Positions 13,795-53,886 of a stretch of DNA of 64,000 nt are shown one piece after another; position 1 is the first letter of the stretch; each line of letters opens with the position of its first letter. The notes below the pieces were generated by a model. The model was given only the letters and a program-made list of their open reading frames with translations. It was not told where the DNA came from and did no database searches. The DNA is from Candidatus Zhuqueibacterota bacterium. GTDB lineage: Bacteria > Zhuqueibacterota > JdFR-76 > DREG01. Made by a program: the position numbers and the translations under genes. The stretch is taken from the NCBI GenBank assembly GCA_022566355.1, contig JADFJB010000004.1, positions 15,668 through 79,667 of the forward strand, written 5' to 3'.

Positions 13795-13823
13795 AGTAAA
13801 TCTGTCCTAAAAATTAAAATTGT

Positions 13824-14198: not shown

Positions 14199-14268
14199 CA
14201 CATCTCCTAAGTTTGATATTTAATATTATTATTATTCACAAATTATTATTTATAGTACTTCAATGCTT

Positions 14269-23117: not shown

Positions 23118-23503
23118 AGGGAAAATTACGTTTAATCGTATTTTTGATAGTGGATGAATCTGCTGTAGCAAGAAAAATGATCAAACGTTCGTTAGAAATC
23201 GTGGGTCTCCAGGATTCTGATTTTTCTGAAGCCGAGAATAGTGTGGAAGCTTTAGAAATTCTTAAGGATTCAGAGTTCGATTTAGTTTGTACAGATCTGA
23301 ATATGCCGGAGATGGATGGTACGCAGCTTCTTAAAAGAATAAAAAACTCTCCAAAATTAACGGATACCCCTGTTATCATAATTTCGAGCCTCACGAATGC
23401 AACCAGAGAAAAACAATTGCTTTCTGATCATGCGTTAAAAGTATTCAAAAAGCCATTGTCTTTACCGGAATTTAGCGGCTTTTTTAGTGTTTATTTAAAT
23501 TAA
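23108..23503 (+). CDS. CheY-like single-domain response regulator
   Basis: Receiver motifs IVDESAVARKM, DLNMPEMDGTQL, ISSLTN, FKKPL. GTG start, overlapping the HDOD gene end. Confidence 0.85.
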   Translation: MVLKGKLRLIVFLIVDESAVARKMIKRSLEIVGLQDSDFSEAENSVEALEILKDSEFDLVCTDLNMPEMDGTQLLKRIKNSPKLTDTPVIIISSLTNATREKQLLSDHALKVFKKPLSLPEFSGFFSVYLN

Positions 23504-23524
23504 AATTAAGGTAGAACTGTAAAG

Positions 23525-23930
23525 ATGAGTAGTGGGAAAAACCAATTGATTAATGCTTTATCCGGGGCTGTCGCTGAAACTTTTGAGGGATTGGCCTTTG
23601 CTGAAGTTGAAAAACCCGGCAAATGGCGCGCTACATATTGTCATCGGTGAAAATTTGTCTTTTGAACTTACTAAATCTTTATCAGGTGAAGATAGGCAAG
23701 AAATAGCAGACTCATTAGTAAGAGATTCCATAGCAGAAATTGCCAATATTATTGGTGGTAGTTATTTGCGCTTTATAACCCTGGAAAATCATAAATATGA
23801 GTTAGGTATTCCTGTTTCGCGTAGAATAGCCGATAAGAAGTCAGAGTTTAATGAGAAATCTGCAATTTATATGGCTTTTGATATTGAAGGGAATAAAATT
23901 TATGTAATGTTGACTAATTCACAAAATTGA
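23525..23930 (+). pseudogene. CheX/CheC-like gene interrupted by a frameshift (or sequencing error) near an A5C3 run
   Basis: ATG 23525 gives MSSGKNQLINALSGAVAETFEGLAFAEVEK, a typical CheX N-terminus, then stops at 23648-23650. ORF 23553..23930, in another frame, carries the rest of the domain, including D-x3-E-x2-N (DSIAEIANIIGGS). The sensible reading switches frame around 23609-23620 (GAAAAACCCGGC). Confidence 0.6.
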
Positions 23931-27969: not shown

Positions 27970-29034
27970 ATGCCTGCAACAGCAGCAGAAAAAACTGAAC
28001 GAGCTACATCGAAGAAGCGTGAAGACAGCCGAAAAAAAGGTACAGTTGTTAAAAGTACAGAGGTCAACACAGCTGTCATCCTCTTGACTGGTACATTGGC
28101 TCTTTCATTCACGGCAAGTTATTTCGTCGGGAATATCCGTTTTTTTATGACAGATGTCTTTACTCATGCCACAGAGTTTGAGATTACGGCAACGAGCATC
28201 CAGGGTTACAGCTATAATGGTATCTTGTTGCTGTTGAAAACCGTTGGTCCAATCCTCCTTAGTATTTTTTTACTTGGTATAACAGCCAATGTTATGCAGG
28301 TAGGATTTATGGTTTCAGGACAAGCGCTTAAATTTGAACTTAAAAAGATAAGTCCCTTAAGTGGATTTAAACGGATGTTTTCTGCCAAATCCGTTGCCGA
28401 TCTTGTTAAGAGTATTATCAAAATAATTGTTGTAGGTTTTTTGATTTTCTCTGCTATCAAAAGTGCATCTGAAGATTTCATTCCGCTTATGGATCAAAAT
28501 GTCGCCTACATATTTGCTTTTATCGGGATGACGATGCTGAAAATCTCTTTACGGGCTTCAATTGGTATTGTGGCTTTAGCAGCATTTGATTATGCATTCC
28601 AAAAATGGGAATATGAAAAAAGTTTGAGGATGACTAAGCAAGAAGTCAAAGAAGAAATAAAAGAGCAAGAAGGTGATCCGATAATGAAAGCCCGCATTCG
28701 CAGTATTCAGCGGGAAGCCTCAAGAAAACGAATGATGACTGAAGTGCCTAAGGCTGATGTTGTGATCACGAACCCAATTCACTATGCGGTTGCTTTGAAA
28801 TACAAGTCAGAAGAAGCCGAAGCTCCTATAGTTATTGCGAAGGGCGCTCGGAAAATGGCCCATAAGATTAAAGAGATTGCCAAAGAGCACGGTGTGCCCA
28901 TCGTTGAAAATCCAAAATTAGCCAAAACAATTTACAAGATGTGTGACCTGGGTATGCAAATCCCATTGGACCTTTACCGAAGTGTTGCAGAGATATTGGC
29001 ATATGTGTATGGCCTAAAACAGAAAGCAAATTAG
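27970..29034 (+). CDS. flhB: Flagellar export switch protein FlhB
   Basis: N-terminal EKTERATSKKREDSRKKG, four TM segments, and a C-terminal domain KQEVKEEIKEQEGDP...VVITNPIHYAVALKY...APIVIAKG. Confidence 0.96.
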   Translation: MPATAAEKTERATSKKREDSRKKGTVVKSTEVNTAVILLTGTLALSFTASYFVGNIRFFMTDVFTHATEFEITATSIQGYSYNGILLLLKTVGPILLSIFLLGITANVMQVGFMVSGQALKFELKKISPLSGFKRMFSAKSVADLVKSIIKIIVVGFLIFSAIKSASEDFIPLMDQNVAYIFAFIGMTMLKISLRASIGIVALAAFDYAFQKWEYEKSLRMTKQEVKEEIKEQEGDPIMKARIRSIQREASRKRMMTEVPKADVVITNPIHYAVALKYKSEEAEAPIVIAKGARKMAHKIKEIAKEHGVPIVENPKLAKTIYKMCDLGMQIPLDLYRSVAEILAYVYGLKQKAN

Positions 29035-32308: not shown

Positions 32309-33162
32309 CTAAAGATCAAGCCTCTAAGTTACGAGATCTAATACCCGGAAAAGAAACTTTTCCCAGGGTTGAAAACTCACTTGCTACCCAAAGAATAGGA
32401 ATTACTTCCGGAAAAGGTGGAGTCGGTAAAAGTATAATTGCACTCAATTTGTCTATTCTGTTAGCCAAAAGCCATCGCCCGACGTTGCTAATTGATGGGG
32501 ATTTGAATTTATCGAATATATCCATCTTGACAGATACGGCTCCTGAATTCGGTTTTTTGGATGTTAAGCAAGGTAATAAATTATTGAAAGATGTAATATT
32601 CCCTTACCAGGATAATTTGTCCATTTTGACGTCAGGTTCCGGCGAATTGAAATTGTTAAATTCAAAAGATGAATTTCTAAACCATCTTCGCATTCAATTC
32701 CAACAATTAGACGGTAAATTTGATTATGTCTGTATCGATTCACCATCAGGAATTTCTTCCCTGGTTTTTGGTGAATTGGCTTCCTGCGATGAAGTATTCG
32801 TTGTTTCCACACCCGATCCGACTTCGATAACCGATGCTTACGCTATTGTTAAGATGATGACCTATTTTTATCCCCATATCCCATTATACCTGATTTTGAA
32901 TTTTGTAAGGTCGGAAGACGATGCTTTTGAAGCCTATAAGAAATTTGATCTCATTACAGAAAAATTCTTGCACAGACAAATCAATTATTTGGGCTGTCTT
33001 AATTATTCGGATGAAGTAATTCAATCTGTACTGCAACAACAACCCTTAGCGCTAAGGGAGGGGTCTAGTATATTTATCGATCAACTTAAGAAGATTATGA
33101 ATCGTTGGCTGGAATCGGCACATAGTGGCTATGAGTCGATTATGGAGTTCAGCACAAGCTAA
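32305..33162 (+). CDS. flhG: MinD/ParA-type flagellar number regulator FlhG (FleN/YlxH)
   Basis: The N-terminal DQASKLRDL matches the FlhF-activating DQAxxLR motif. Deviant Walker A is SGKGGVGKS. Follows flhF. Confidence 0.88.
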   Translation: MTKDQASKLRDLIPGKETFPRVENSLATQRIGITSGKGGVGKSIIALNLSILLAKSHRPTLLIDGDLNLSNISILTDTAPEFGFLDVKQGNKLLKDVIFPYQDNLSILTSGSGELKLLNSKDEFLNHLRIQFQQLDGKFDYVCIDSPSGISSLVFGELASCDEVFVVSTPDPTSITDAYAIVKMMTYFYPHIPLYLILNFVRSEDDAFEAYKKFDLITEKFLHRQINYLGCLNYSDEVIQSVLQQQPLALREGSSIFIDQLKKIMNRWLESAHSGYESIMEFSTS

Positions 33163-33181
33163 ACTAGAAGGAGAGCGAGTT

Positions 33182-33988
33182 ATGACACTGCAGACAATTG
33201 CAGCAAAGGAATATAAAAGCACAAATCAGAATGAAGACCCCAGTGATTTGTGGCAAATGTATACTAAAACCAAGAATCGGGCCATTAAAGAAAAGCTTCT
33301 CATAAAATATCTTCCTTTGGTAAAATATGTGGTTGGAAGAATGATTCTTACGCTTCCCAATTCTGTGAATTATGACGATTTGGTAAGCGCAGGAACAATG
33401 GGACTGCTTGCGGCCATCGATAGATTCGATATAAAAATGGGTGTGAAATTTGAAACTTATGTCGTTCCAAGAATTCGCGGATCTATCCTGGATGAACTAA
33501 GAGCGTTGGATTGGGTACCACGTTCAGTTCGCAGTAAAGCGAAAAAGCTTGAAAAAGCCATTATGAGTATCGAATCACAGCTTGGACGTGTCGCAACTGC
33601 TGAAGAAATTGCGGATGAATTGCAAATGGACCTGGAAGAATACGAACATATGCTTTCTAAGGTGGGTGATAACTCAATGATGTCCCTCGATCGTGAATTC
33701 TATGAGTCTAGCGAAACCAACGGTACTCTTTACGATCTAATTACCAATGTTAAATCTGAAGATCCGATTAAAATAATGGAGAATGATGAGTTAAATGATA
33801 TTCTGGTTGAATATTTAAATAGTCTGCCAGAAAACGAAAAATTGGTTTTAGCATTGTATTACTATGAAGATCTAACTCTCAAAGAGATTGGTATGGTGAT
33901 GCAAGTTTCCGAGTCAAGAGTTTCCCAAATCCATACCAAAGCGGTTCAACGCCTTAGATTAAAACTTAAAGAGTTTATTTATTCATGA
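33182..33988 (+). CDS. fliA: Flagellar sigma factor FliA (sigma-28)
   Basis: Region 2 (LVSAGTMGLLAAIDRFD...FETYVVPRIRGSILDELR) and region 4 HTH (LTLKEIGMVMQVSESRVSQIHTKA). Internal ATG 33182 with GAAGGAGA upstream was chosen. Confidence 0.93.
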   Translation: MTLQTIAAKEYKSTNQNEDPSDLWQMYTKTKNRAIKEKLLIKYLPLVKYVVGRMILTLPNSVNYDDLVSAGTMGLLAAIDRFDIKMGVKFETYVVPRIRGSILDELRALDWVPRSVRSKAKKLEKAIMSIESQLGRVATAEEIADELQMDLEEYEHMLSKVGDNSMMSLDREFYESSETNGTLYDLITNVKSEDPIKIMENDELNDILVEYLNSLPENEKLVLALYYYEDLTLKEIGMVMQVSESRVSQIHTKAVQRLRLKLKEFIYS

Positions 33989-34008
33989 ACGATTGACAAG
34001 GAGGGGCT

Positions 34009-34320
34009 ATGGTAGCGCCCTTACATTTACAAGATAATCTTTCAAAAATTCCTTTAGTACAAAAAATTCATGATTCATCCCAAGTTATACCGCAAGTGAA
34101 CAAAGATCAGATAAAAGAGCAAATAAAACAGGATGCAACTAAAGAAGCGACTACAACAAAAGAATCAAAACACGGAGAGAAAGTAGAGATTCGGGATGAT
34201 AATCGGGACCGTAACAGAAGAAGAAAGAAAAGGAAATTCCGTAAAACCGGAGATTCATCAGAAGATAATACAGAAAAAATTGAATCTAAGATGGGGCAAC
34301 TAATCGACATAACAGTTTAG
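34009..34320 (+). CDS. Small, highly charged hypothetical protein downstream of fliA
   Basis: 103-aa ORF with AAGGAGG upstream. K/E/D/R-rich and predicted disordered, with a RNRRRKKRKFRK stretch. No recognisable family. Confidence 0.45.
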   Translation: MVAPLHLQDNLSKIPLVQKIHDSSQVIPQVNKDQIKEQIKQDATKEATTTKESKHGEKVEIRDDNRDRNRRRKKRKFRKTGDSSEDNTEKIESKMGQLIDITV

Positions 34321-34335
34321 GTTTGGAGCATATTC

Positions 34336-35295
34336 TTGAGCAAAAACATTAATTCAGACCAAATCAAAAATGTAATTCAGCATATTTTTGATTTACCGAC
34401 ATTACCCACAACGATAGCTAGAATGATTGAGGTTATTGACCATCCATCATCTTCAGCCCAAACACTGGATAGAATTATTTCAGGAGACCAGGCTCTCGCA
34501 GCCCAGATTTTAAAACTTGCAAACTCCGCTTATTATGGATTTCCAAGAAAAATAAATACAATTACTTTGGCGATAGTCGTTCTTGGTTTTGAAACGGTTA
34601 AAAATTTCGGATTGAGTGTATCAGTCATAGATCGATTTTCCTGCTATAATAATACGGCTCCATTTGATATTTATCTTTTTTGGGAACATTCCATTTGTAC
34701 TGCTCTCGCCAGTCGTTTACTTGCCAGGGAGTGTGGTTACCAGCCTGCCGGAGAAGCTTTTGCAACAGGTCTCCTTCATGATTTGGGCAAATATGTCATT
34801 AGCTTGCATTTTAGAAATGAATTTGAAATTGTTATCAAACAAATGATAGAAGAAGATATTCCGATGTTTGAAGCGGAAGAACAGCAATTATCGGGAATCA
34901 ACCATGCACATGCAGGCGCATGGCTTGCAGAAAAATGGAACCTATCGGATTCAATTGTGGAAGGTATCTATTTCCACCATAAACCGCAATTAGCGCTGAA
35001 ACATCAAAGGCTCGTTTGGATTATCCATTTTGCAAATTACCTGACCAAAAAAATTGGTGCAGGTTTTTCGGGAGATCTTTCAACAAATTGCTTCCAGGAG
35101 GAGGCCATTCTTGCACTAAATTTAGTTTTGGATGGGAATGGCAATATTGATGAAGACTACTATTTTAAGAAAATTAGTCAGGAAATCGAAAAAGAACAAG
35201 CTTTGTTTGATTTGGTCCGAAATCGCCCGGGAGATAAGCAATTAAGCAATTACCAAGATAATCAATGGAGTGAATATGCCACTAACCATGCATGA
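34336..35295 (+). CDS. HDOD domain protein
   Basis: LPTLPTTIARMIEVIDHPSSSAQTLDRIISGDQALAAQILKLANSAYYG, GLLHDLGK and HAHAGAWLAEKWNLSDSIVEGIYFHH fit the HDOD pattern. TTG start. Confidence 0.8.
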   Translation: MSKNINSDQIKNVIQHIFDLPTLPTTIARMIEVIDHPSSSAQTLDRIISGDQALAAQILKLANSAYYGFPRKINTITLAIVVLGFETVKNFGLSVSVIDRFSCYNNTAPFDIYLFWEHSICTALASRLLARECGYQPAGEAFATGLLHDLGKYVISLHFRNEFEIVIKQMIEEDIPMFEAEEQQLSGINHAHAGAWLAEKWNLSDSIVEGIYFHHKPQLALKHQRLVWIIHFANYLTKKIGAGFSGDLSTNCFQEEAILALNLVLDGNGNIDEDYYFKKISQEIEKEQALFDLVRNRPGDKQLSNYQDNQWSEYATNHA

Positions 35296-36520
35296 AATTG
35301 ATAAATCCATTAATACAAATGTTGATTTCATTAAATCTTTCCAAATGTTAAATAGCGTAAATAATTGGGTGATTTTTTTGGATCGTTATCGTGAAACAAT
35401 TCAAAAAGTACTTCCTTGCAAAAGTATTACGTTATTTGAATATGATGAAAGAAAAAAATTGCATTTTGTCGCTGATGTATTTCCACAGAAATTTCATGGA
35501 TTTGTAAATCACCAGTTGGAAGAGGGTATTATTTCCTGGGCTCAACTTCACAATGAAGTATTTATTTCAGAAACAGAGTTTTGTTATGATGAATTTCATC
35601 CATCCAAATCCATATTTATGCCTTTGCACCAGAACAAACAACCAAGAGGTGTGATTGAAATTTTACCGGAGAATTCCATTCATCTCGAAAATGGATCAGT
35701 CCTCAGCCATCTTAAAATATTATGTACTCTCATATCAGATAAAATAGAAATTCTCAAATTAAGCTCAAAATTAGCTGAAAAGGAGAGCATGCTTGAAAGA
35801 ATTACCAACCAGTTTGAGATGACGAATAAAATGGTTTCGTTGGGTGAATTAGCCGGAAGTGTTGCACATGAAATCAATAATCCAATGACCACGATTCTGG
35901 GACGGCTGCAATTATTGATCGAGTCTAATTCATTACCCGATCAGGTACAAAATAAGATGAAAGTAATTGAAACCCAGGCTAATCGAGTATCAAAACTCAT
36001 TCATGCACTCTTATCTTTTGCACGAGGAAATAATGAAAGTATCGACGAAGAAATAAACATCAACCAGGTAATTAATAGTTCCTTGGATTTAACGTGCCAT
36101 AATTTGAAGATTAATAAAATTGAAATAAGTACAAATTTAGTGGATGACTTGCCAGTAATATATGGTAACCCGATTCAATTACAGCAGGTTTTTATTAATC
36201 TAATTAACAATGCCCAGCACGCAATGCAGGCCAAGGGAAAATTAACAATCGGGACTCGCCTTTTTGATGCAGGTGTTTGTATTACTATAAAAGATAATGG
36301 TTCCGGCATTGATCCCAAAGATCACGAAAAAATTTTTGAATTGCTTTACTCCACAAAAAAAACATCTGGTGGTACCGGATTAGGCTTATCAATATGCAAA
36401 CAAATCGTACAGAAATATAACGGAACAATTTCAGTGGATAGCCAATTAGGCCAGGGAACAAAATTTGAAATTTATATTCCATTCAAAAGTAACCAAAAGA
36501 AACGGAAGTTGAGGAGATAG
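35276..36520 (+). CDS. Cytoplasmic sensor histidine kinase (GAF-like N-terminus, HisKA, HATPase_c)
   Basis: H box SVAHEINNPMTTILG, N box LINNAQHAM, G boxes DNGSGI and GTGLGLSICKQIV. No TM segments are apparent. Confidence 0.9.
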   Translation: MPLTMHEIDKSINTNVDFIKSFQMLNSVNNWVIFLDRYRETIQKVLPCKSITLFEYDERKKLHFVADVFPQKFHGFVNHQLEEGIISWAQLHNEVFISETEFCYDEFHPSKSIFMPLHQNKQPRGVIEILPENSIHLENGSVLSHLKILCTLISDKIEILKLSSKLAEKESMLERITNQFEMTNKMVSLGELAGSVAHEINNPMTTILGRLQLLIESNSLPDQVQNKMKVIETQANRVSKLIHALLSFARGNNESIDEEININQVINSSLDLTCHNLKINKIEISTNLVDDLPVIYGNPIQLQQVFINLINNAQHAMQAKGKLTIGTRLFDAGVCITIKDNGSGIDPKDHEKIFELLYSTKKTSGGTGLGLSICKQIVQKYNGTISVDSQLGQGTKFEIYIPFKSNQKKRKLRR

Positions 36521-36525
36521 AATTA

Positions 36526-37983
36526 ATGAAGAAGTACTATTCAATCTTACAAATATTAACATTTGTCTTATTAACTACAGTGAAATTATTTGGGCAAAAT
36601 TATATCGAGCAAATATCTACTAAGAATGTCGATAATGGCATTCAAATAAATTTAGCAACACATGCCTCGGTTTCTCATGAAATATTAAATTTTGACTCCC
36701 GGTCAACTACACTTGTCAAGATTTTTCCACTCACCATTCAGCAAGATAATAAAGATGCTCTATTGGCTTCATTAAGTGGATTAGGTATCGATATCCAAGC
36801 TTTAGAACTCGGTAATAATACTGTACTGCTGGCTTTTAAAAATGTCCTTTCGAATAGATTATCCATAAAAACAAATGAGAGTAAAGATAAACTAAGGATC
36901 CACATTTTAGACAATCAGAAAATATCTAAATCAGTCGGGAAATCAAATTCACAATTATCTCAAGAATATTATCAAAAAGCAATGCAGCTTTTTGAAAGCG
37001 GGGAATATTCTGAGGCTTTAACTAAAGTACGTTCTGCCATAAAATTAAACCCTGGGTTTGCGGAAGCCTATTTTCTAGGTGGACAACTCCGTTATAAATT
37101 GAAAGATTGGGTAAAAGCCAAATATAATTTTAAAAAAGCAGCTATTTTAAAGGGCGAGTATAGCGAAGCCAATAAATATCTGAATAAAATTAATTCGATA
37201 GAAAATGATTCTTTGACAGCACTGTCGAATATCAAAAACAATAGTGACAATGAAAGTGATATTAGCAGAAATAACAAAAGTAGTACCAATAGGTATAATG
37301 AAAGCAATATCACCAGTACGAGCGATAGTTTATCACAACCGGATTCAACCGTTCTTGCTACAAGTGTAGTAGAAGTGCCGGAGGATCCCCGGGTTACAAT
37401 AACTGACACAAACTCCGGTTTAAGCCCGGTGTCTGATTCTCCTGAAACTAATCCTTATGCACCTTTAGCAGCACGGGCTTTCAATGCGAATTTCAATAAC
37501 TATCTACAACTTGGCTTTTTTCTCCTAATCATAAGCTTTCTATTGGGGTGGATATTGTATCTCAAAAAAAGTCGAAAATTGCTTCAATTGAAGAGTAAAA
37601 AACTGAATAAAAATCACTTTACAGAGGTTCTCAGTAAGATCCAGGAAAATATACAGGAAAAGAAGAAACCGAAAAAATCATTTCGAAAAGTACAAAATAA
37701 GCAACCGGGAGAAAATCGGAGTATGGAGAGCTTTAATGAGGATATAAATTCACAACGATCTTTTAAAGATGAATTCAATGAAAGACCTTTAAATCCGTTA
37801 CCTTATGAAGGAGATCCAACGGAAAAGGTTTGCCAGTTTTCTTCGGTGGGGTATAGTGTTGAAGAAATTGCTCGTATGCTAAACATGGGAAAAGGTGAAG
37901 TAAAGCTAATCTTAAATTTTCGGGGACGTCATAGTCCTATGACTCCGCCCGATATGAGATTTAATCTTGCTGAAACCGTTTAA
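36526..37983 (+). CDS. Signal-peptide/TPR protein with S/N-rich linker, one TM segment and an HTH-like C-terminus
   Basis: N-terminal signal-like MKKYYSILQILTFVLLTTVKLFG. TPR-like EYYQKAMQLFESGEYSEALTKVRSAIKLNPGFAEAYF. TM segment LQLGFFLLIISFLLGWILYL. C-terminal YSVEEIARMLNMGKGEVKLIL. Confidence 0.55.
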   Translation: MKKYYSILQILTFVLLTTVKLFGQNYIEQISTKNVDNGIQINLATHASVSHEILNFDSRSTTLVKIFPLTIQQDNKDALLASLSGLGIDIQALELGNNTVLLAFKNVLSNRLSIKTNESKDKLRIHILDNQKISKSVGKSNSQLSQEYYQKAMQLFESGEYSEALTKVRSAIKLNPGFAEAYFLGGQLRYKLKDWVKAKYNFKKAAILKGEYSEANKYLNKINSIENDSLTALSNIKNNSDNESDISRNNKSSTNRYNESNITSTSDSLSQPDSTVLATSVVEVPEDPRVTITDTNSGLSPVSDSPETNPYAPLAARAFNANFNNYLQLGFFLLIISFLLGWILYLKKSRKLLQLKSKKLNKNHFTEVLSKIQENIQEKKKPKKSFRKVQNKQPGENRSMESFNEDINSQRSFKDEFNERPLNPLPYEGDPTEKVCQFSSVGYSVEEIARMLNMGKGEVKLILNFRGRHSPMTPPDMRFNLAETV

Positions 37984-38002
37984 TGCTAAATTTTAGAACA
38001 TC

Positions 38003-38686
38003 ATGAATGGAATTGGTTTAAAAAATTTACGAAACTTTTTTGTTAAGTCGGTTTTACCGGATGTTTTTACCCAGAAATTCCAAGAAGGTGAATTAATTAA
38101 AGGGAAAATCATCCAGGCAATGTCTAAAAACGATTTCTTTATTTTAAATACAAAAGGAATAAATTTGGTTGCCCAATCTAAAATTGCACTGTTCGCCGGA
38201 GATAAAATTGTCGGTAAAGTACTTAAAAACAAATCTCAAATAGAACTGAAATTAGTTGAAGTTAATGGTAACAAAATCCATCAGAATATGACTATTTCAA
38301 GTGAAGAAATTAATTATGCGCAGCTGCCTTTGCCGGAATCCTATTTTGGTAAGAAATCATTTTTAGAAATATATCCGGATAAAGAAAATGGCAAGCGCAA
38401 TGGCGGTAATCCAGCCCGTGACTCAGTTTACTTAATCATTAACAGTTCACTATTGAACCATTTGGCAATAGATTTGAAATATGAAAATGAAAATCTGGCT
38501 GGAAAAATTTGGGTTGAACAACCAAAGTTGCGAGATTTTTTATCACAAAGAGTACCCGAGCTTGAAGAGTATTTAACCGATGAAAATATTAAATCAGTAG
38601 AATTGAAAATTCTTGACATGCAAAGAGAAATTGGTTCATTTAGAAAACAATGGATTGGTTTAGCAAATTTGGATATTCGGGCATAA
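38003..38686 (+). CDS. FliK C-terminal (Flg_hook/T3S4)-like domain protein
   Basis: The C-terminal VYLIINSSLLNHLAIDLKYENENLAGKIWVEQPKLRDFLSQRVPELEEYLTDENIKSVELKILD aligns by eye, position for position, with the FliK C-terminal domain of this window (ISVLLKPEFLGMAKIVVESSEKEVKAILYIERPEVRNVLERQIIQIHKSLQDQNIRVDKIEVMD). Confidence 0.6.
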   Translation: MNGIGLKNLRNFFVKSVLPDVFTQKFQEGELIKGKIIQAMSKNDFFILNTKGINLVAQSKIALFAGDKIVGKVLKNKSQIELKLVEVNGNKIHQNMTISSEEINYAQLPLPESYFGKKSFLEIYPDKENGKRNGGNPARDSVYLIINSSLLNHLAIDLKYENENLAGKIWVEQPKLRDFLSQRVPELEEYLTDENIKSVELKILDMQREIGSFRKQWIGLANLDIRA

Positions 38687-38710
38687 CTTTTTATGAAATT
38701 GAGATTAATA

Positions 38711-39076
38711 ATGTCTAAGAAAATAGTATTATTTGTAGATGATGAAATTGAGATTCTCGAAATTATAGAGGATGTCTTTAAGGACAGCCCCTTCAATGTT
38801 ATCTGTGCCGAATCAGGAAAAACCGCTTTGGATTATTCAAAGAAGCATAAAATCAATTTAATCGTTTGTGATCTAATACTAAATGATATATCAGGTTTAG
38901 AGGTGTTAACCCATTTTAAAGAAAATCATCCAAATACGTATCGAATCCTTACGACGGGATACTTGGATGAAAAGCAAGAGAATTATTGCAGAGAAATCGG
39001 TGTTTTCCAAAAAATTATACCAAAACCTTGGGATATCTATGAAATTCGGGATCAAATAACAAAGGCAGTCGCTTGA
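38711..39076 (+). CDS. CheY-like single-domain response regulator
   Basis: Receiver motifs VLFVDDEIEILE, DLILNDISGLEV, LTTGY, IPKPW. Internal ATG 38711 of ORF 38693..39076 was chosen. Confidence 0.85.
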   Translation: MSKKIVLFVDDEIEILEIIEDVFKDSPFNVICAESGKTALDYSKKHKINLIVCDLILNDISGLEVLTHFKENHPNTYRILTTGYLDEKQENYCREIGVFQKIIPKPWDIYEIRDQITKAVA

Positions 39077-39351
39077 CATCAAAAAGGAATAAAGCCGTAG
39101 TTCTTAAATATGAACCTAAACTGCACCAGGCTCCTCAAATTGTCGGCAAGGGAGTTGGTTGCGTTGCAGACAAAATTCTTGATTTGGCTGAAGCAAATGA
39201 TGTCCCTATTTTGGAAGACAATAATCTGATGCAATCTTTATATCCATTGATGGTAGGAGAAATGATACCAGAGATACTTTATCAACCTGTTGCTAAGATT
39301 CTTTCATTCATCATGAATTATCATCAGAATGAAGGATCGCAGGTTAGTTAG
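39073..39351 (+). CDS. FlhB C-terminal domain-like protein (YlqH-type EscU/YscU/FlhB paralog without the membrane domain)
   Basis: KAVVLKYEPKLHQAPQIVGKGVGCVADKILDLAEANDVPILEDNNLMQSLY parallels the FlhB segment AVALKY..APIVIAKGARKMAHKIKEIAKEHGVPIVENPKLAKTIY. It begins after the NPTH position. TTG start overlaps the upstream stop. Confidence 0.8.
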   Translation: MTSKRNKAVVLKYEPKLHQAPQIVGKGVGCVADKILDLAEANDVPILEDNNLMQSLYPLMVGEMIPEILYQPVAKILSFIMNYHQNEGSQVS

Positions 39352-39487
39352 CATTGAATGTAAGCAGAGTTTCCTGTGTTAGGATTCATTGAATAATAGA
39401 ATTGGATTAACTCATTCAAAAAAAAAGGAAGATTAATCATGTTGGGAAAAATTGAAATTCATTCATTAAAGAAGGGAGACCTGAAAA

Positions 39488-39979
39488 ATGTATACTGAAC
39501 AATATGAAGATACCGCTGTTTTAGATATAGAACAGCTAGAGTTGGATTTCTTACAAAAGAAAACCGAACCGGGTATTCGAGAGATAATTGATGAATTAAA
39601 GAAAGAAATCGGGTATAACTGGGTGTCTTATTTCAGAAAAGATCCGGTTTCCGGAGTTTTGCAGGAAGTGGAGCTTGATGAAAGGGGATTTAATCTGATC
39701 GAAACCGTAACTTTCCGAAGTGGGAGTGGCTTATCAGCCTGGGTGGCCGAGCGCCAACGGCCGGTAGTCCTGAGCTCGGTGCATAAAAGCCAAAGATTTG
39801 AGAGTAATCCGATTAAATCGTTTATGTGTTGCCCGGTAATAAGAGATGGGAACACGGTGGGCGTGATTAACTTGGGTCATGCAAAAACCAATGCGTACAA
39901 GAAGGAAACTCTAAAAATGCTGAATCATATTCTTAACGTCCAAAATATAGAAGCCCTATGTCAAAACGAATACTCGTGA
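39488..39979 (+). CDS. GAF-like domain protein
   Basis: 163 aa. The pattern SGSGLSAWVAERQRPVVLSSV...SFMCCPVIRDGNTVGVINLGH is typical of the C-terminal half of a GAF domain. Confidence 0.55.
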   Translation: MYTEQYEDTAVLDIEQLELDFLQKKTEPGIREIIDELKKEIGYNWVSYFRKDPVSGVLQEVELDERGFNLIETVTFRSGSGLSAWVAERQRPVVLSSVHKSQRFESNPIKSFMCCPVIRDGNTVGVINLGHAKTNAYKKETLKMLNHILNVQNIEALCQNEYS

Positions 39980-41022
39980 TAGAAGATGATGAAAACCTTC
40001 AACTGATTGCTCGTCATATTTTAACCAATGCAGGATTCGATGTGATTTCTGCAATGACAGGAGAAGAAGGATTAGAGAAATTACTCAGTAAAAAGCCGGA
40101 TTTAGTAATTCTTGATAATATGATGCCCCGTAAAAGTGGCGAGCAAGTTTTCGATGAAGTAATGGACGATCCAAAGTATCGATCTGTCGGCAAAATTCCA
40201 TTTATAATGCTGACTGCTAAAGAGATGAAAAGAGAAAAAATTAGGGATTTTTTGGAAAGAGGGATGGCTGCCTTTTTATCGAAACCGTTTGGTCCAAAAG
40301 AACTATTGAATGTTATTCAGAATATTCTCACAACTCATGAGATCCAAGTTAAAGAACAGCACCTGTTTAAAGTGATCAGCAAAGCAAAAGATTTTTTAAA
40401 AAATCTTGTGAATACCATCCCCGATGCTCTATTCATCGTTGATAAAGACGGCAAAATTAATTTTTACAATGGCGGACATGTAGAAGTATTGCAATATCAA
40501 ATATCCGACCTGGTTGGTCAAACATTTGATTCAATCACTAGTAAAGATTCTCCGTCGCTTTCAGAATTGATTAAATTATTGGATGACAAAGATAAATTGT
40601 GTAATGTTTCACTTAATTTAAAAGATCAAAACAATAATTTAGTGCCATTTAGTTTCTCATTGGCAAAACTTTACAATCAACAGGATGAAATGATAGGCAT
40701 TATTTTTATAGGTTCTGATATTTCTGAAATTAAAAGGCTTGAAAGAGAACTTGTCGAAAAAGAAAAATTGGCAATATTTTCTGAGACTGCCATAGCTATT
40801 AATCATGAAATCAATAACCCGTTAGCTCCAATTATTGGCAATGTACAACTACTTTTGGAAGATAAAATGCTGGAAGGTTCGGCACAAAAGAAATTGAAAG
40901 TCATATTTCGAAATGCAGTTAGGATCAAGGAAATCACACAAAAACTAAGGGATATTAGGCAACCCGTCCAAACCTCTTACCTTGGAGATACAAAAATGGT
41001 AGATTTGAGTGATTCGAATTAA
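39958..41022 (+). CDS. Response regulator with PAS and HisKA (DHp) domains but no ATPase domain
   Basis: REC (ILVIEDDENL, DNMMPRKSGEQV, LTAKE, SKPF), PAS-like (IPDALFIVDKDGKINFYN...) and H box AINHEINNPLAPIIGNVQLL. The protein ends about 60 aa later, with no N/G boxes. Confidence 0.8.
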   Translation: MSKRILVIEDDENLQLIARHILTNAGFDVISAMTGEEGLEKLLSKKPDLVILDNMMPRKSGEQVFDEVMDDPKYRSVGKIPFIMLTAKEMKREKIRDFLERGMAAFLSKPFGPKELLNVIQNILTTHEIQVKEQHLFKVISKAKDFLKNLVNTIPDALFIVDKDGKINFYNGGHVEVLQYQISDLVGQTFDSITSKDSPSLSELIKLLDDKDKLCNVSLNLKDQNNNLVPFSFSLAKLYNQQDEMIGIIFIGSDISEIKRLERELVEKEKLAIFSETAIAINHEINNPLAPIIGNVQLLLEDKMLEGSAQKKLKVIFRNAVRIKEITQKLRDIRQPVQTSYLGDTKMVDLSDSN

Positions 41023-41246
41023 CCTATTTAGTCTCTAAATAATCTCACATTAACGCTCTTTTATGCAAAAAAGAAAACAAGTTTTTTTAAGAAAAAATTA
41101 ATCTTGATATTGAATATTGAATTAATAATTTTATGATTTGAGAATAAACAGATTTTATGTTTAGTGCGATATTTGGATAATAACAACTGATTCTTTATTT
41201 TGGTTTTTGGGATCTCACATAAACAATAACTTAAAGGAAGATAGCC

Positions 41247-41705
41247 TTGATTGATGGAGTTCAAGTAAAAAAGTTAGTTACATATTGCGATGAGAGAGGT
41301 TTTTTTCGGGAAATCATTCGCGTTACCGATGATTTTTTTGGAGAAGGTTTTGGGCAATGGAGCGTTTCCAAAATGTACAATGGTGTAATCAAAGCCTGGC
41401 ACATTCATCCAAACCAGGTGGACTGGTGGTACGTTCATTCGGGAGTTCTCAAAGTAGTTTTATATGACAAACGAGAAAACTCTTCAACGCACAAAGAACT
41501 AGTAGAGTTGTTTATGGGTGATAACCAACAAGCCCAGGTACTGAGAATCCCACATGGCGTTGCTCATGGATGTAAATGCATAAGTGGTCCGGCAACCCTG
41601 TTTTACATTACATCGAAAACTTATGATCCGGAAGAAGAAGGTCGCATACTTTATGATGATCCTGACATTGGTTACGATTGGTTAAAAGGTTCAGAGATTA
41701 CCTGA
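41247..41705 (+). CDS. dTDP-4-dehydrorhamnose 3,5-epimerase-like cupin (RmlC family)
   Basis: DERGFFREI...SKMYNGVIKAWHIH...DWWYV..GVLKVVLYD.R..S.T...L....IPHGVAHG...FYITSKTYDPEEEGRILYDDPDIGYDW matches the RmlC pattern. TTG start. Confidence 0.8.
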   Translation: MIDGVQVKKLVTYCDERGFFREIIRVTDDFFGEGFGQWSVSKMYNGVIKAWHIHPNQVDWWYVHSGVLKVVLYDKRENSSTHKELVELFMGDNQQAQVLRIPHGVAHGCKCISGPATLFYITSKTYDPEEEGRILYDDPDIGYDWLKGSEIT

Positions 41706-42022
41706 ACCGAAATTTGACAATCAGACGTAAATTCTTCTTTAGTACTTCAATCATTATTCTGAATGGGGCAGTTTTGTGAATAATAAAAACAAACTTAATC
41801 GACTTTACCCCTTCTAAAACTTACCTGTTAAGGCTGGTTTCCCTTAAAATCATAGCGGAAAAACAATCCTGCTAAACTACAACAACATGGAAGAAGTTGC
41901 CGGTTTGTGTAATCTGCAATACTAGGTTAAAACTAGCTATGTTCACGGATTCTCCAGTATAAATTAATAAATAACAATTAGTTATGGGATCACAAAGTTT
42001 TTAAGGAAAATGATTGAAAAGA

Positions 42023-42037
42023 TGGCACGTTGATTGC
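42023..42037 (+). promoter_or_regulatory. Sigma-54 promoter candidate upstream of flgF
   Basis: TGGCACgttgaTTGC is a full match to TGGCAC-N5-TTGC. The C of TTGC lies 41 nt upstream of the flgF ATG, within a 372-bp intergenic gap. Confidence 0.7.
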
Positions 42038-42077
42038 GAAAAGATTTATGAATTGAACCATTAATAGGAAAAAATCT

Positions 42078-42806
42078 ATGATCAAAGGAATATATACAAG
42101 TGCTGTTGGAATGCAATCAAGAATGTTGGAAGAAGAAATTTCTGCGAACAACCTTGCGAACCTGAATACCACCGGATTCAAAAAAGATACTGTTCATTTT
42201 AAAAAACTGCTTGATGGAAATATGGTTCAACTAAATTTTGATGGCAGTCAAGGCAGTTTAGCTGAATCACAAAATGTTCAGACTAATTTTGCCCAGGGAG
42301 AGTTAAAGGAAACAGGCAATTCACTCGATGTTGCACTTGACGGAACCGGATTTTTTACAGTTTTAACCGAAGATGGTGAAGCCTATACCAGGAATGGATA
42401 TTTTCAATTGGATGAAGATGGACAATTGATGACAGCTAATGGATATAAGGTAATGGGGACAGCAGGCCCGATTCAATTATTTCCCGGTCAGGTTGAAATT
42501 AGAGGGAATGGTGAGATTTACCAGAATAATGCTCTTGTAGATAAATTGAAAATTGTAGATTTCCAAAAGCCTTATTCATTGCTAAAATTGGGAGAGTCGT
42601 TGTTCCAGGAGACTGATAATTCCGAAATGGTGGATGTGGGGAATACGATGTTTCGTCAAGGATATTTGGAAGAATCAAATGTAAATCCGATTTATGAAAT
42701 GGTGAAATTGATTACAATTGCAAAGGCATTTCAGGCTGGTCAGAAAGCTATTCAGGCTCAAAACAACACCCTGGAAAAAGCTGTCAATTCAGTTGGAAGA
42801 TTTTAA
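42078..42806 (+). CDS. flgF: Flagellar proximal rod protein FlgF
   Basis: 242 aa. N-terminal MIKGIYTSAVGMQSRMLEEEISANNLANLNTTGFKKD and C-terminal GYLEESNVNPIYEMVKLITIAKAFQAGQKAI. Precedes flgG. Confidence 0.85.
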   Translation: MIKGIYTSAVGMQSRMLEEEISANNLANLNTTGFKKDTVHFKKLLDGNMVQLNFDGSQGSLAESQNVQTNFAQGELKETGNSLDVALDGTGFFTVLTEDGEAYTRNGYFQLDEDGQLMTANGYKVMGTAGPIQLFPGQVEIRGNGEIYQNNALVDKLKIVDFQKPYSLLKLGESLFQETDNSEMVDVGNTMFRQGYLEESNVNPIYEMVKLITIAKAFQAGQKAIQAQNNTLEKAVNSVGRF

Positions 42807-50570: not shown

Positions 50571-50861
50571 CATCATCAAGAATTTAAAAATAGCTTGTTT
50601 TTAGAAGTCAGCAGGTTGGGAGGCCACATGACTTCACGCTACTTTAGTATATTAAGCGCATCTATGTTTATTAAGTACAAATAAATTAAGGGTAGTTAAG
50701 AGTTAAAACCCTGGTTTAGTCTTCGATTTATTTGAGTTGTTCAATTCAGTTAAACGACCTGAAAAATGATAATTTGACAAAATATGTCTATTCAACATGT
50801 GGCTTATATGGCGGAGCTGTGTAGAGTTATAAAATTCAAATGAAGAGTATTGGAGAAAAGT

Positions 50862-51878
50862 ATGATTTGGAAAGATCTTAGTGTTTTAATTACTGGCGGC
50901 ACAGGCTCTTTTGGAAAAAAATTTACTGAAATAATGCTTGAGCGTTATCAACCTCGCCGATTGATTATTTTTAGCCGGGATGAATTAAAACAACATGAAA
51001 TGAGACAAATATTCCCTGAGGATAAAAACACGGCAATCCGGTATTTTATAGGAGACGTCAGGGATAAAGATCGACTCTACAGAGCCTTTAATGATGTTGA
51101 TATAGTTGTGCATGCGGCAGCGTTAAAGCAGGTTCCCACAGCGGAATATAACCCGCTGGAGGTTATCAAAACCAATATTTTAGGAGCGTCAAATGTGATT
51201 GATGCCGCCATCGATTGTGGTGTGAAGCGTGTCGTCGCTTTAAGTAGCGATAAAGCAGTAAGTCCTGTTAACTTGTATGGCGCTACAAAACTTTGTGCAG
51301 ATAAATTGTTCATCGCTGCAAAAGCCTATACCGGAGCTAACGGCACACGTTTTAGTGTAGTACGATATGGCAATGTAATTGGCAGCCGGGGAAGTGTGAT
51401 CCCTCTATTTAAAGAAAAACGCTCCACCGGGATTCTTCCAATTACGGATTTAAGAATGACCCGGTTTTGGCTAACCCTGGACAAGGCCGTTGGTTTAGTG
51501 ATAAAATGTCTGGAAATAATGCAAGGGAGTGAAATATTTGTACCCAAAATTCCAAGTATGCGTATTGTTGATTTAGCGAATGCAATTGCTCCGGAGTGCC
51601 GTCATGAAATAATAGGTATTCGACCGGGAGAGAAACTTCATGAAGTTTTACTTACCGAAGATGAAATTCACAATACGGTTGAATTTGATGATTATTACGT
51701 CGTTCAAATGGATTCAAATCAAAATAATAACAGAATGAACAGTAAACGTGAAAAATTAGATGAGAACTTCAAATACAGCAGTGATACGAATGATTGGTGG
51801 CTGGGAACAAGCGAGTTACTCGATTTGGTGCTGCTGAACGAGCCAATAGAATCAAAGGAAGAATTTGTATTCTCATAA
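50862..51878 (+). CDS. pseB: UDP-N-acetylglucosamine 4,6-dehydratase (PseB/FlaA1/CapD family)
   Basis: ITGGTGSFGKKF Rossmann motif, FIGDVRD, VHAAALKQVP and YGATKLCADKL (YxxxK). Length and the MIWKD...start fit PseB. Confidence 0.88.
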   Translation: MIWKDLSVLITGGTGSFGKKFTEIMLERYQPRRLIIFSRDELKQHEMRQIFPEDKNTAIRYFIGDVRDKDRLYRAFNDVDIVVHAAALKQVPTAEYNPLEVIKTNILGASNVIDAAIDCGVKRVVALSSDKAVSPVNLYGATKLCADKLFIAAKAYTGANGTRFSVVRYGNVIGSRGSVIPLFKEKRSTGILPITDLRMTRFWLTLDKAVGLVIKCLEIMQGSEIFVPKIPSMRIVDLANAIAPECRHEIIGIRPGEKLHEVLLTEDEIHNTVEFDDYYVVQMDSNQNNNRMNSKREKLDENFKYSSDTNDWWLGTSELLDLVLLNEPIESKEEFVFS

Positions 51879-51915
51879 TAAAGAATAATTTCGCCTGGCT
51901 CTAATATGGAAATAA

Positions 51916-52707
51916 ATGCTGAATAAACAAAGGATAGTAGCTATCATTCAGGCAAGAATTGGTTCATCCAGGTTGCCGGGAAAGACACTAACCAATATTG
52001 ATGGAAAGCCCCTGCTAGCTCGTATCATTGAACGTATCCAGGCTTGCACAAAAATTGACGACATTTTGGTTGCCACTACGAACAAGCCGGAGGATGTTGA
52101 AATTCAAACTGTTGTATCAAGTTATGGGATAAGATCATTTGCCGGCAGCGAAAACGACGTATTAGATCGATTCTACCAGGCCGCAAAGCTTGTTGGCGCA
52201 GATGTAATCGTTCGCATAACAGCAGACGATCCATTCAAAGATCCCCAGGTTATCGATAAATTTATTAGTTATTTTTTAGCAAATCCTGAGTTTGATTTTT
52301 TGGGTGAGGAAGAAAATAATCCGACATTTCCAGAAGGATTAGCGGTTTCGGTGTTCTCATTCAATGCATTGGAAAGAGCATGGCGAGAAGCAATTTTATT
52401 TTCAGAAAGAGAGCACGTAACCCCTTATTTCTTAAAAAATCCCCAAAAATTCAATATTGGAATTATTCGAAATGAACAGGATTTATCTCATCACCGCTGG
52501 ACATTAGACTATGCAGAAGATTTACTTTTTACTCGTGAAATATATGACCGGCTGGGACATAAAGGCATATTTTTGATGGAGGATATACTTGATCTTCTGG
52601 AGACTGAACCCTCACTAGCAAACATTAATCAAGGGATAGAGAGGAGTAAAGGGTGCAAATTGTCATTACAGGATAACTTTGAAATGCTGGAGGAAGCGGT
52701 AAATTAA
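51916..52707 (+). CDS. SpsF-type cytidylyltransferase (nonulosonic acid activation candidate)
   Basis: IVAIIQARIGSSRLPGKTL..IDGKPLL, VATTNKPED, GSENDVLDRF and VRITADDPFKDP match the SpsF/cytidylyltransferase pattern. Confidence 0.8.
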   Translation: MLNKQRIVAIIQARIGSSRLPGKTLTNIDGKPLLARIIERIQACTKIDDILVATTNKPEDVEIQTVVSSYGIRSFAGSENDVLDRFYQAAKLVGADVIVRITADDPFKDPQVIDKFISYFLANPEFDFLGEEENNPTFPEGLAVSVFSFNALERAWREAILFSEREHVTPYFLKNPQKFNIGIIRNEQDLSHHRWTLDYAEDLLFTREIYDRLGHKGIFLMEDILDLLETEPSLANINQGIERSKGCKLSLQDNFEMLEEAVN

Positions 52708-52710
52708 TAG

Positions 52711-53886
52711 ATGAAAAGAATTACCGAATTGGAAAGTCGATATGTGCAGGAGGTGTTGGAATCACAATTTAGTACCTCTTCAAACGGCATTATGACCAGC
52801 CGGCTTGAGCAGAGATTTGCCGATATTTTTCAATCAAAATATGCGATTTCATTTATCAATGGCACGGCAACCATGCATGCCATTCTGTCCGCAGCCGGCG
52901 TAGGTGCAGGTGATGAAGTAATCGTTCCACCACTCACAATGGCTAGTACTGCACTTGCGGTTTTGCATGCAAATGCAACCCCGGTTTTTGCGGATATTGA
53001 TCCTGACACCTGGAACATTGACCCTGAATCCATACTGAATCGTGTTACTCCCAATACAAAAGTGATAATTCCCGTTGCCATTTACGGTCTGCCTCCTGAT
53101 ATGGACCCGATCATGAAGATAGCAAAACAATACGATTTATTTGTTCTGGAAGATGATGCACAATGCTTTTTGGGATATTACAAAGATCAAATAATGGGGA
53201 GTATCGGCCATGCTTCGAGTTTTAGTTTTCAAAGCTCTAAACATATAACAAGCGGTGAAGGGGGCGTGGTTACGACCAACGATGAAGAATTAGCTTTGAA
53301 GATTCGGAGAATTAATAGTTTAGGATACGGTGCAGTTGAAGGAGGCATCGGCAAAGGAAAAATATCGCGAACCGATATTCAGGATCCGAAATATCTTCGT
53401 CATGTTTCTACAGGTTGGAACTACCGTATGCCAGACCTGTGTGCAGCAGTTGCATTAGGTCAATTAGAAAGATTAAGCGAATTTGTCGATATTCGGATCA
53501 AAGTAGCAAATCTATACAGACAAGCCATTGAAGGATGTAATTGGTTAGTGCCCCAACGTCAACCGAAAGATTGCATCCATTCATGTTGGTCTTATGTTTT
53601 AAAATTACAAAATTCAGATTTAAGCTGGTACGATTTTAGAGATACCTATCTACAGAATAGCGGAGATGGAATATACGCTGCATGGCAATTAACTTATCTG
53701 GAACCTGCATTTATAAATACTAAGTTTCACCCGAATCAGAGGCAAAAATTTGCAAAAGGCTTATGTCCGGTTGCAGAAAAAATCCAGCCAAAATTGCTTC
53801 AACTTAAGACCAATTACTATGATTTAGATACAGCTGAACAAAAGGCTGAAGCATTATCAAAAACGATTGATTTTTTTGGACGTTAG
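52711..53886 (+). CDS. DegT/DnrJ/EryC1/StrS-family PLP-dependent sugar aminotransferase (PseC/SpsC-like)
   Basis: FINGTATMHAIL, GDEVIVPPLTMAST, EDDAQCF, and SFSFQSSKHITSGEGG carrying the PLP lysine. Confidence 0.9.
   Translation: MKRITELESRYVQEVLESQFSTSSNGIMTSRLEQRFADIFQSKYAISFINGTATMHAILSAAGVGAGDEVIVPPLTMASTALAVLHANATPVFADIDPDTWNIDPESILNRVTPNTKVIIPVAIYGLPPDMDPIMKIAKQYDLFVLEDDAQCFLGYYKDQIMGSIGHASSFSFQSSKHITSGEGGVVTTNDEELALKIRRINSLGYGAVEGGIGKGKISRTDIQDPKYLRHVSTGWNYRMPDLCAAVALGQLERLSEFVDIRIKVANLYRQAIEGCNWLVPQRQPKDCIHSCWSYVLKLQNSDLSWYDFRDTYLQNSGDGIYAAWQLTYLEPAFINTKFHPNQRQKFAKGLCPVAEKIQPKLLQLKTNYYDLDTAEQKAEALSKTIDFFGR

Follow-up and report, generated by a model that had tools for sequence, protein, structure and literature searches.

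Why would a flagellar gene cluster that already encodes a full-length FliK and a full-length FlhB also carry a second protein with a FliK-like switch domain and a second copy of the FlhB C-terminus, with a receiver gene placed between them? The question is raised by a 64,000-nucleotide (nt) stretch of contig JADFJB010000004.1 from a Candidatus Zhuqueibacterota bacterium (hereafter, the window), which is a single long co-directional flagellar and chemotaxis cluster with a G + C content of ~36%. The initial annotation had placed three tightly spaced open reading frames (ORFs) at 38003–38686, 38711–39076 and 39073–39351 and had proposed that they form an undescribed, phospho-regulated module acting on the switch in export specificity. 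All three ORFs are present on the plus strand. A gap of 24 nt separates the stop of the first gene from the ATG of the receiver at 38711, and the TTGA at 39073–39076 contains both the receiver TGA and the TTG with which the third gene starts. We refer to these genes as fliK2, REC1 and flhX. Our analysis indicates, with reasonable though not strong confidence, that the locus is this lineage's copy of an ancient accessory fliK2–flhX pair that was split by a signalling island and that the receiver is a relay intermediate. What emerges is a variant, specific to one lineage, of a gene pair already known rather than a categorically new system.

FlhX is the more readily recognized of the two outer proteins. 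It is a small, soluble-type protein that lacks a membrane anchor and is homologous only to the C-terminal subdomain released by FlhB autocleavage (FlhB-CC). Pfam Bac_export_2 matches FlhX over model positions 262–335 only (E = 9e-19), the best NCBIfam model is TIGR00789 (flhB_rel, ‘FlhB-like flagellar biosynthesis protein’; E = 3e-22), and FlhX is 35% identical to residues 266–351 of the FlhB encoded in the window (E = 2e-14). Consistent with this, a profile of the FlhX proteins of the lineage matches 3b1s_B, the chain corresponding to the post-cleavage fragment of Aquifex FlhB-CC, at 2.5e-21. The FlhX start, MTSKRNKAVVLKY, aligns to FlhB ..TNPIHYAVALKY, at the position of the cleavage motif, which bears out the earlier reading of a 92-residue FlhB-C paralog beginning at that point; the NPxH motif itself is absent from every FlhX of the lineage in our alignment. 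In Salmonella, the early-substrate docking pocket of FlhB-CC consists of A286, P287, A341 and L344 (PMC9307174; FlhB residue numbers in E. coli are one lower). The equivalent residues of FlhX, A20, P21, A74 and L77, do not vary within the lineage, and this conservation is compatible with a FlhX that could replace FlhB-CC at the export gate. Among the metagenome contigs recovered in our searches, L017–L021 encode full-length FlhB-like proteins (~350–370 residues) that lack NPTH at the aligned position (HAGD, SPHG, NPSG and SPRG are found there); these may be non-cleaving FlhB paralogues.

The FliK-like character of FliK2 is weak by sequence and is supported from several sides. Pfam Flg_hook matches residues 151–203 (E = 3.1e-5) with a score of 24.2 bits, under the gathering score of 29.8. 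The alignment to the FliK of the window, which had been described as holding position for position, is real but weak: BLASTP pairs FliK2 residues 169–226 with FliK residues 890–944 at 22% identity over 58 residues (E = 1e-4). Thus, of the two profile matches anticipated for the outer proteins, that of FlhX is clear and that of FliK2 falls below threshold. Word-index searches with single proteins as queries returned only 2–3 near-identical relatives, and HMMER, run exhaustively against 1.84 billion representatives, recovered no more than 30 FliK2 homologues. The distant homologues are 350–600 residues long and match FliK2 residues 20–90 and 100–200 alike, and several pass the Flg_hook gathering score in the aligned region. 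Searches of PDB sequences with FliK2, alone or as a profile, found nothing meaningful. The AlphaFold2 model has a mean predicted local distance difference test score (pLDDT) of 72, with values of 84–93 over residues 140–210, and when it was compared by Foldseek with 350,542 PDB chains the top match was the T3S4 domain of PscP (5cuk; probability 1.00, target-normalised TM score 0.59, root mean square deviation 2.1 Å over 67 columns). The query has several domains, and for this reason the E-value of the match is just 0.046. The FliK C-terminal domain (FliK-C; 2rrl) was also matched, with a probability of 0.92, and the model of the N-terminal domain resembles OB/cold-shock folds. The T3S4-like C-domain and the N-terminal barrel are shared across the family. 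In addition, FliK2 ends in LDIRA, a pentapeptide of the same type as the VDIFA terminus of E. coli FliK; the terminal pattern [LIVMF][DN][LIVMATY]x[AVIT] is present in 38 of 39 FliK2-type proteins from several phyla as opposed to at most 5% of background ORFs.

FliK2 has the switch end of FliK but is not a ruler FliK, because it is too short, its N-terminus is predicted to be folded (residues 26–90) instead of long and largely unstructured, and the window encodes a separate FliK of 985 residues. The latter is the real hook-length ruler of the cluster. The FliK2 proteins of the lineage also contain a conserved N-terminal motif, LRNFFVxP (window residues 9–17, nt 38027–38053; F13-x-x-x-V17). This motif bears a loose resemblance to the FxxxΦ ‘gate recognition motif’, through which early substrates bind the docking pocket of FlhB-CC, and, speculatively, could be an element that binds FlhX or FlhB.

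The pairing of a FliK-C protein with a free FlhB-C protein is not undescribed, as had been supposed. In P. putida, PP_4328–PP_4329 have been named fliK2–flhX and form a FliA-dependent operon in which fliK2 is called uncharacterised (bioRxiv 10.1101/2021.08.29.457346). As in the window, a protein with a FliK-C domain is encoded upstream of a free FlhB-C homologue, in or beside the flagellar cluster; in contrast to the window, the two genes are contiguous, with no receiver between them. The FliK2-type proteins of P. putida and other phyla are also longer, ~350–650 residues compared with 227. The flrD gene, a putative DUF2802/DUF6115-type gene, lies near fliK2–flhX in P. putida and may be compared with the DUF6115 gene of the window. 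In other comparative work, FlhX is counted among the standard flagellar components and ‘flhX-fliK’ pairs are mentioned. The pair is likewise present in Bacillus. In B. velezensis (L024), ylqG encodes a protein of 567 residues and overlaps ylqH by 4 nt, and the YlqG C-terminus has a T3S4 hidden Markov model (HMM) match of 2.3e-7 and ends in VDVKI. Bacillus YlqH, like FlhX of the window, is an FlhB-CC copy of ~93 residues encoded downstream of a T3S4-type gene, but in Bacillus the pair sits apart from the flagellar operon (ylqF-rnhB-ylqG-ylqH-sucCD) and is not accompanied by signalling genes, whereas the pair of the window is inside the cluster. YlqG is annotated in this record as a ‘glycosyl transferase’, a label that its T3S4-like C-terminus does not support. 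The record, NZ_CP083716.1, is described as B. velezensis ‘plasmid pDMB05-1’ (806 kb) and carries ylqF-rnhB-ylqG-ylqH-sucCD-dprA-topA; because of this core chromosomal synteny, it is probably a mis-assigned chromosome fragment.

Four further unrelated loci from metagenome-assembled genomes (MAGs) or metagenomes (L011–L014) encode a protein of 380–652 residues that abuts or overlaps FlhX, and a T3S4 or Flg_hook signal was found in three of the four. In L014 the gene order is DUF6115/DUF2802, fliK2, flhX, flgF, flgG, flgA, flgH, flgI, which is the order of the window minus the signalling genes. The DUF6115/DUF2802 protein of this unrelated locus (156 residues, 2312–2782) precedes fliK2–flhX as its counterpart does in the window, and the three genes DUF6115/DUF2802, fliK2 and flhX may form a conserved unit. 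In none of six loci outside the lineage was a receiver present between fliK2 and flhX, which are adjacent or overlapping. Of the other searches for relatives, a metagenome profile scan gave seven loci, comprising the window's own sequence and six full-length FlhB-like genes, and tblastn of plasmids gave mostly full-length flhB, with only the Bacillus ylqH match being useful. The Vibrio alginolyticus ‘fliK2/flhB2’ genes are irrelevant here, as these names refer to the lateral flagellar system.

The canonical counterpart of the pair is the FliK-C/FlhB-CC switch of Salmonella, which is built from the same two domain types. The FliK pentapeptide and the FlhB-CC pocket are both kept in the soluble-type copies of the window. 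In Salmonella, however, FliK is secreted and serves as a long ruler, and FlhB-CC derives from an autocleaved membrane protein, whereas the window encodes FliK2 and FlhX as two separate, small, cytoplasmic-type proteins in addition to the canonical FliK and FlhB. For H. pylori, FlhX (HP1575) is described as a ‘spare part’ for FlhB-CC in the title of Wand 2006, as listed in PMC3040844, and the P. putida study, whose references include Pallen 2005, Wand 2006 and Smith 2009, notes that it partially replaces FlhB function (bioRxiv 10.1101/2021.08.29.457346). Like FlhX of the window, it is a free FlhB-CC homologue and, according to these citations, it can support export there after deletion of FlhB-CC.

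Relatives of the 227-residue protein were found only in MAGs labelled ‘uncultured Deferribacteres’, ‘Calditrichaeota bacterium’ or ‘Bacteroidota bacterium’. For these uncultured organisms we use ‘Calditrichota-like lineage’ as a working label. The survey of the lineage yielded 11 distinct loci in three arrangements. Type A, fliK2, REC1, flhX, is the arrangement of the window and of L001/L004, L002, L003, L005, L015 and a JGI contig. In type B (L007, L008/L010, L009, L022 and L023) the order is fliK2, REC1, REC-HisKA-HATPase, REC-PAS, REC-HD-GYP, flhX, RsbW-like kinase, STAS (REC, receiver domain). Type C, represented by L006, consists of fliK2, a REC-HATPase hybrid kinase and flhX, with no stand-alone receiver. 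Thus, the direct adjacency of flhX to a fliK2/ylqG-type gene is not found in the window; the order is kept and a receiver is interposed. Between one and four receiver-containing genes separate fliK2 from flhX in the lineage. The flanks are identical in all three types, with the kinase and TPR/DUF6115 genes before the locus and the GAF, REC-PAS-HisKA and flgF genes after it. The fliK2-to-flhX order with signalling genes in between therefore does not reflect chance, since it recurs in 11 distinct loci in which FliK2 identity falls to 25–31%.

In the type-B loci, an RsbW-like anti-sigma kinase and a STAS anti-anti-sigma protein are encoded directly after flhX; this gene pair is absent from the window. 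It is reminiscent of Pseudomonas HsbA/HsbR. In Pseudomonas, hptB, hsbR and hsbA lie upstream of fliK and act on FlgM/FliA, not on the export switch (bioRxiv 10.1101/2021.08.29.457346). HptB-HsbR-HsbA show, as a precedent, that genes for phosphorelay and partner switching can be embedded in flagellar operons beside a fliK-type gene, although they are not orthologous to the proteins of the lineage.

In a neighbour-joining tree of the receivers, REC1 proteins of types A and B fall in one clade, and the receiver of the L006 hybrid kinase groups with those of the type-B hybrid kinases. Because of this grouping, the simplest reading is that a larger ancestral island would have lost different genes in different branches, with the window as a reduced form. 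The two-component genes inserted between fliK2 and flhX are new and specific to this uncultured lineage. The claim of a linked triad is accordingly to be divided. The genes are linked in other genomes and the outer two are copies of the switch partners, as their T3S4 fold, pentapeptide and docking pocket indicate; the interposed receiver is confined to one lineage, and a fixed module of three genes is contradicted by its absence elsewhere, by the variable gene content within the lineage and by L006.

REC1 is a canonical single-domain receiver (Response_reg, E = 1.3e-18), as it had been described, and retains all residues required for phospho-chemistry: the acidic pair DD10-11, the phospho-acceptor D54, the threonine of LTTG and K105-P106. 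The description of this receiver as CheY-like did not hold. REC1 is 18–21% identical to the two CheX-adjacent receivers of the window, its best solved relatives in the PDB are Spo0F structures (E = 2e-11), with the HupR and NtrC1 receivers also among the closest, and none of its 14 PDB matches at E ≤ 1e-8 is an entry named CheY. On these comparisons, REC1 does not belong to the chemotaxis CheY proteins. Ten of the 11 lineage loci encode a stand-alone receiver after fliK2, from a gene that begins 5–38 nt downstream, and REC1 is orthologous to these receivers (43–69% identity). We also considered REC1 as a truncated REC-HD-GYP protein and rejected this, as it groups with the stand-alone REC1 clade (43–44% identity) rather than with HD-GYP receivers (32–33%). 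By its conservation REC1 is a functional gene, not debris. FliK2 and FlhX do not strictly require it as a partner, since L006 keeps fliK2 and flhX without a stand-alone receiver.

How might these parts work? A 2026 ejection model holds that FlhB-CC keeps the gate in early mode until it is ejected by FliK-C, the last five residues of FliK being proposed to engage FlhB-CC and flip the switch (PMC13344023). FliK2 and FlhX could then constitute a cytoplasmic replica of this FliK-C/FlhB-CC ‘key and lock’. The free FlhB-CC copy would be a spare or re-loadable lock or, alternatively, a decoy for FliK and for rod and hook substrates, and FliK2 would be the cognate binder or remover of FlhX. REC1 most likely serves as a phosphorelay intermediate, to judge from its resemblance to Spo0F. 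It may carry phosphate between the GAF-HisKA-HATPase kinase, which is the candidate phosphodonor for the receiver, and the REC-PAS-HisKA protein. The latter has no ATPase domain and an intact H-box, HEINNPL, that resembles the H-box of the kinase; its make-up suggests a histidine phosphotransferase or phosphatase rather than a kinase, and it is a candidate member of the relay. In relatives with the expanded island, the hybrid kinase and the REC-HD-GYP cyclic di-GMP phosphodiesterase would also belong to the relay. REC1 would be co-transcribed with fliK2 and flhX as the whole island tunes flagellar assembly or motility, and contact with either protein would not be needed.

REC1 lacks an output domain and therefore acts by protein–protein contact or by phosphotransfer. 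The first of these options underlies the model put forward in the initial annotation, in which the phosphorylated receiver binds FliK2 and/or FlhX and gates the engagement of FlhX with the export gate. If so, the hook-to-filament switch, or its reset, would respond to an environmental signal. The completeness of the phospho-residues and the conservation of REC1 fit such direct coupling, as does its close spacing after fliK2 in all but one of the lineage loci. The best argument in its favour is that flhX is always directly preceded, in the lineage, by a gene containing a receiver. The flhX start overlaps the stop of that gene by 4 to 14 nt in four measured relatives; the exception is L005, where the first flhX start codon lies 111 nt beyond the preceding stop. 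The best arguments against direct coupling are L006, in which fliK2 and flhX persist in the absence of a stand-alone receiver, and the variable gene content of the lineage. Indeed, three other genes lie between REC1 and flhX in type-B loci, and outside the lineage the pair occurs without any receiver. Moreover, the kinase, the HisKA-only protein and the REC-HD-GYP protein of relatives are ordinary phosphorelay partners, and Spo0F, the nearest solved relative of REC1, is itself a relay intermediate. We therefore regard direct coupling as unlikely. An extension of it, in which the phosphorylated receiver decides the release of FlhX from FliK2 and the released FlhX re-loads onto gates from which their own FlhB-CC has been ejected and returns them to early (rod/hook) export, seems to us quite unlikely; if true, it would amount to a phospho-regulated reset of the supposedly irreversible specificity switch of type III secretion.

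Several points weigh against the account that we favour, of an ancient pair split by a signalling island. In every lineage locus the gene immediately upstream of flhX contains a receiver; this constancy, together with the stop/start overlap, argues against a mere passenger and is also expected under direct coupling. The FlhX score against TIGR00789, 78.6 bits, is below the curated cut-off of 117.35, the Flg_hook score of FliK2 is under the curated Pfam threshold, and the Foldseek E-value for its T3S4 match is modest. The sample from outside the lineage is small, consisting of the six loci and one publication. The sole functional data on the FliK2–FlhX class are those on H. pylori FlhX, which are cited here second-hand. 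Finally, the links among FliK2, FlhX and the receiver are predicted from sequences and gene neighbourhoods.

The opposite view of the receiver, that REC1 is left over, without function, from a decayed signalling island or is an extra CheY whose position is meaningless, is very improbable. Type A does look like a reduced type B, and flagellar superoperons often carry CheY genes. Against decay, however, the catalytic residues are intact and REC1 is conserved across species in which FliK2 is only 31–67% identical; against a CheY, the low identity to both CheX-linked receivers and the lack of a CheY-named entry among the structural matches speak alike. Scarcely credible is the remaining possibility that the 227-residue protein is unrelated to FliK, its Flg_hook match arising by chance and the locus comprising flhX and unrelated neighbours: the sub-threshold Pfam score, the empty profile search of PDB sequences and the Foldseek E-value would allow it, but the pairwise match to the switch domain of the window's own FliK, the above-threshold distant homologues, the structural matches to T3S4 and FliK-C, the FliK-type terminus of nearly the entire family and the placement upstream of flhX, the same as in fliK2 and ylqG loci, all speak against it.

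The pair of FliK2 and FlhX (YlqG and YlqH) is widespread, from Bacillus to Pseudomonas, and has no assigned function. Under the ejection model (PMC13344023), a free FlhB-CC copy beside a T3S4 protein readily suggests itself as a spare part, a decoy or a means of resetting the switch. Two sequence arguments, the terminal pentapeptide of FliK2 and the docking pocket of FlhX, favour the pair as a working replica of the switch partners. The receiver-containing genes that are repeatedly kept between fliK2 and flhX are a hint, not proof, of coupling to signalling. The same model renders the function of FliK2–FlhX testable, and P. putida or B. subtilis would suit since the lineage is uncultured.

Coordinates of the fliK2–REC1–flhX locus, of related and neighbouring features in the window, and of the RsbW-like/STAS pairs in type-B relatives (aa, amino acids; AF2, AlphaFold2)
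Feature	Position	Strand	Basis
Canonical fliK, 985 aa	3213–6170	+	Flg_hook E = 3.4e-10, aa 857–925; between fliJ and flgD
CheX-linked receiver	13824–14201	-	
CheX-linked receiver	23108–23503	+	
Canonical full-length flhB, 354 aa	27970–29034	+	Bac_export_2 E = 1.6e-124
GAF-HisKA-HATPase histidine kinase, cytoplasmic	35270–36520	+	Pfam; same position in relatives
TPR/transmembrane/DUF6115 protein	36526–37983	+	DUF6115 E = 3.7e-9; DUF2802 E = 0.0026 (weak); TPR matches
fliK2-type gene, 227 aa	38003–38686	+	Flg_hook; BLASTP to window FliK; AF2/Foldseek; pentapeptide
FliK2 N-terminal OB-like barrel, ~aa 26–90	38078–38272	+	AF2 model
FliK2 T3S4-like switch domain, ~aa 139–218	38417–38656	+	
FliK2 terminal pentapeptide LDIRA	38669–38683	+	
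Stand-alone receiver REC1, 121 aa	38711–39076	+	Response_reg E = 1.3e-18; alternative ATG at 38693
REC1 phospho-acceptor D54	38870–38872	+	Conserved residue
flhX, 92 aa, free-standing copy of post-cleavage FlhB-CC	39073–39351	+	Bac_export_2; FlhB alignment; profile match
Single-domain GAF protein downstream of flhX	39488–39979	+	GAF_2 E = 2.8e-12
REC-PAS-HisKA protein, 354 aa, no ATPase domain	39958–41022	+	Pfam Response_reg, PAS and HisKA only
RsbW-like/STAS pair, L009	6303–7089		
RsbW-like/STAS pair, L010	6299–7097		
RsbW-like/STAS pair, L022	7312–8098		
RsbW-like/STAS pair, L023	7312–8098		

The genes that flank the locus are conserved. An HDOD gene lies ahead of the kinase wherever a lineage locus extends that far, the TPR/DUF6115 gene is directly upstream of fliK2 in all lineage loci, the GAF gene follows flhX in all loci long enough to show it, and the REC-PAS-HisKA gene is kept in all loci that reach its position. 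In the window, a transmembrane helix and a periplasmic TPR region form part of the same protein as DUF6115.

The cluster begins with fliH, fliI, fliJ, an ORF of 198 residues (2620–3216), fliK, flgD, flgE, motAB and fliL, followed by two CheY-CheX pairs, cheA, cheW, a methyl-accepting chemotaxis protein gene, cheR, cheB and cheD, and then by fliMNOP, fliR, flhB, flhA, flhF, flhG and fliA. The signalling stretch, consisting of the HDOD protein, the GAF-HisKA-HATPase kinase and the TPR/transmembrane/DUF6115 protein, leads into the three-gene locus, after which come the GAF protein, the REC-PAS-HisKA protein, a small cupin, flgF, flgG, flgA, flgH, flgI, flgJ, flgN, flgK, flgL, fliW and sugar-modification genes. 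Scans of 33000–42200 for sigma-70 promoters and terminators gave background levels only, a sigma-28 consensus pattern, which may not be that of the host lineage, had no match anywhere in the window, and an Rfam scan of the window found no RNA family.

Several further features of the cluster deserve mention. At ~2.6 times the 375 residues of its E. coli counterpart, the FliK of the window is long, as is FlgE (679 residues); on the ruler model, an unusually long hook would be predicted. The cleavage motif of the canonical FlhB is NPIH in place of the usual NPTH (residues 268–271, nt 28771–28782; ..VVITNPIHYAVALKY..). The two receiver and CheX pairs are separate, at 13294–14201 on the minus strand and 23108–23930 on the plus strand, and the minus-strand pair is accompanied by an ORF of 341 residues (12264–13289) without a Pfam match. 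Directly after fliA, an ORF of 103 residues (34009–34320) shows 33–53% identity in relatives and no Pfam match; its position and size would suit a putative anti-sigma-28 factor FlgM. After fliW, the sugar-nucleotide genes at 50850–53886 encode a Polysacc_synt_2 dehydratase, a CTP_transf_3 cytidylyltransferase and a DegT aminotransferase, which is the usual make-up of a flagellin glycosylation locus of the pseudaminic/legionaminic acid type.

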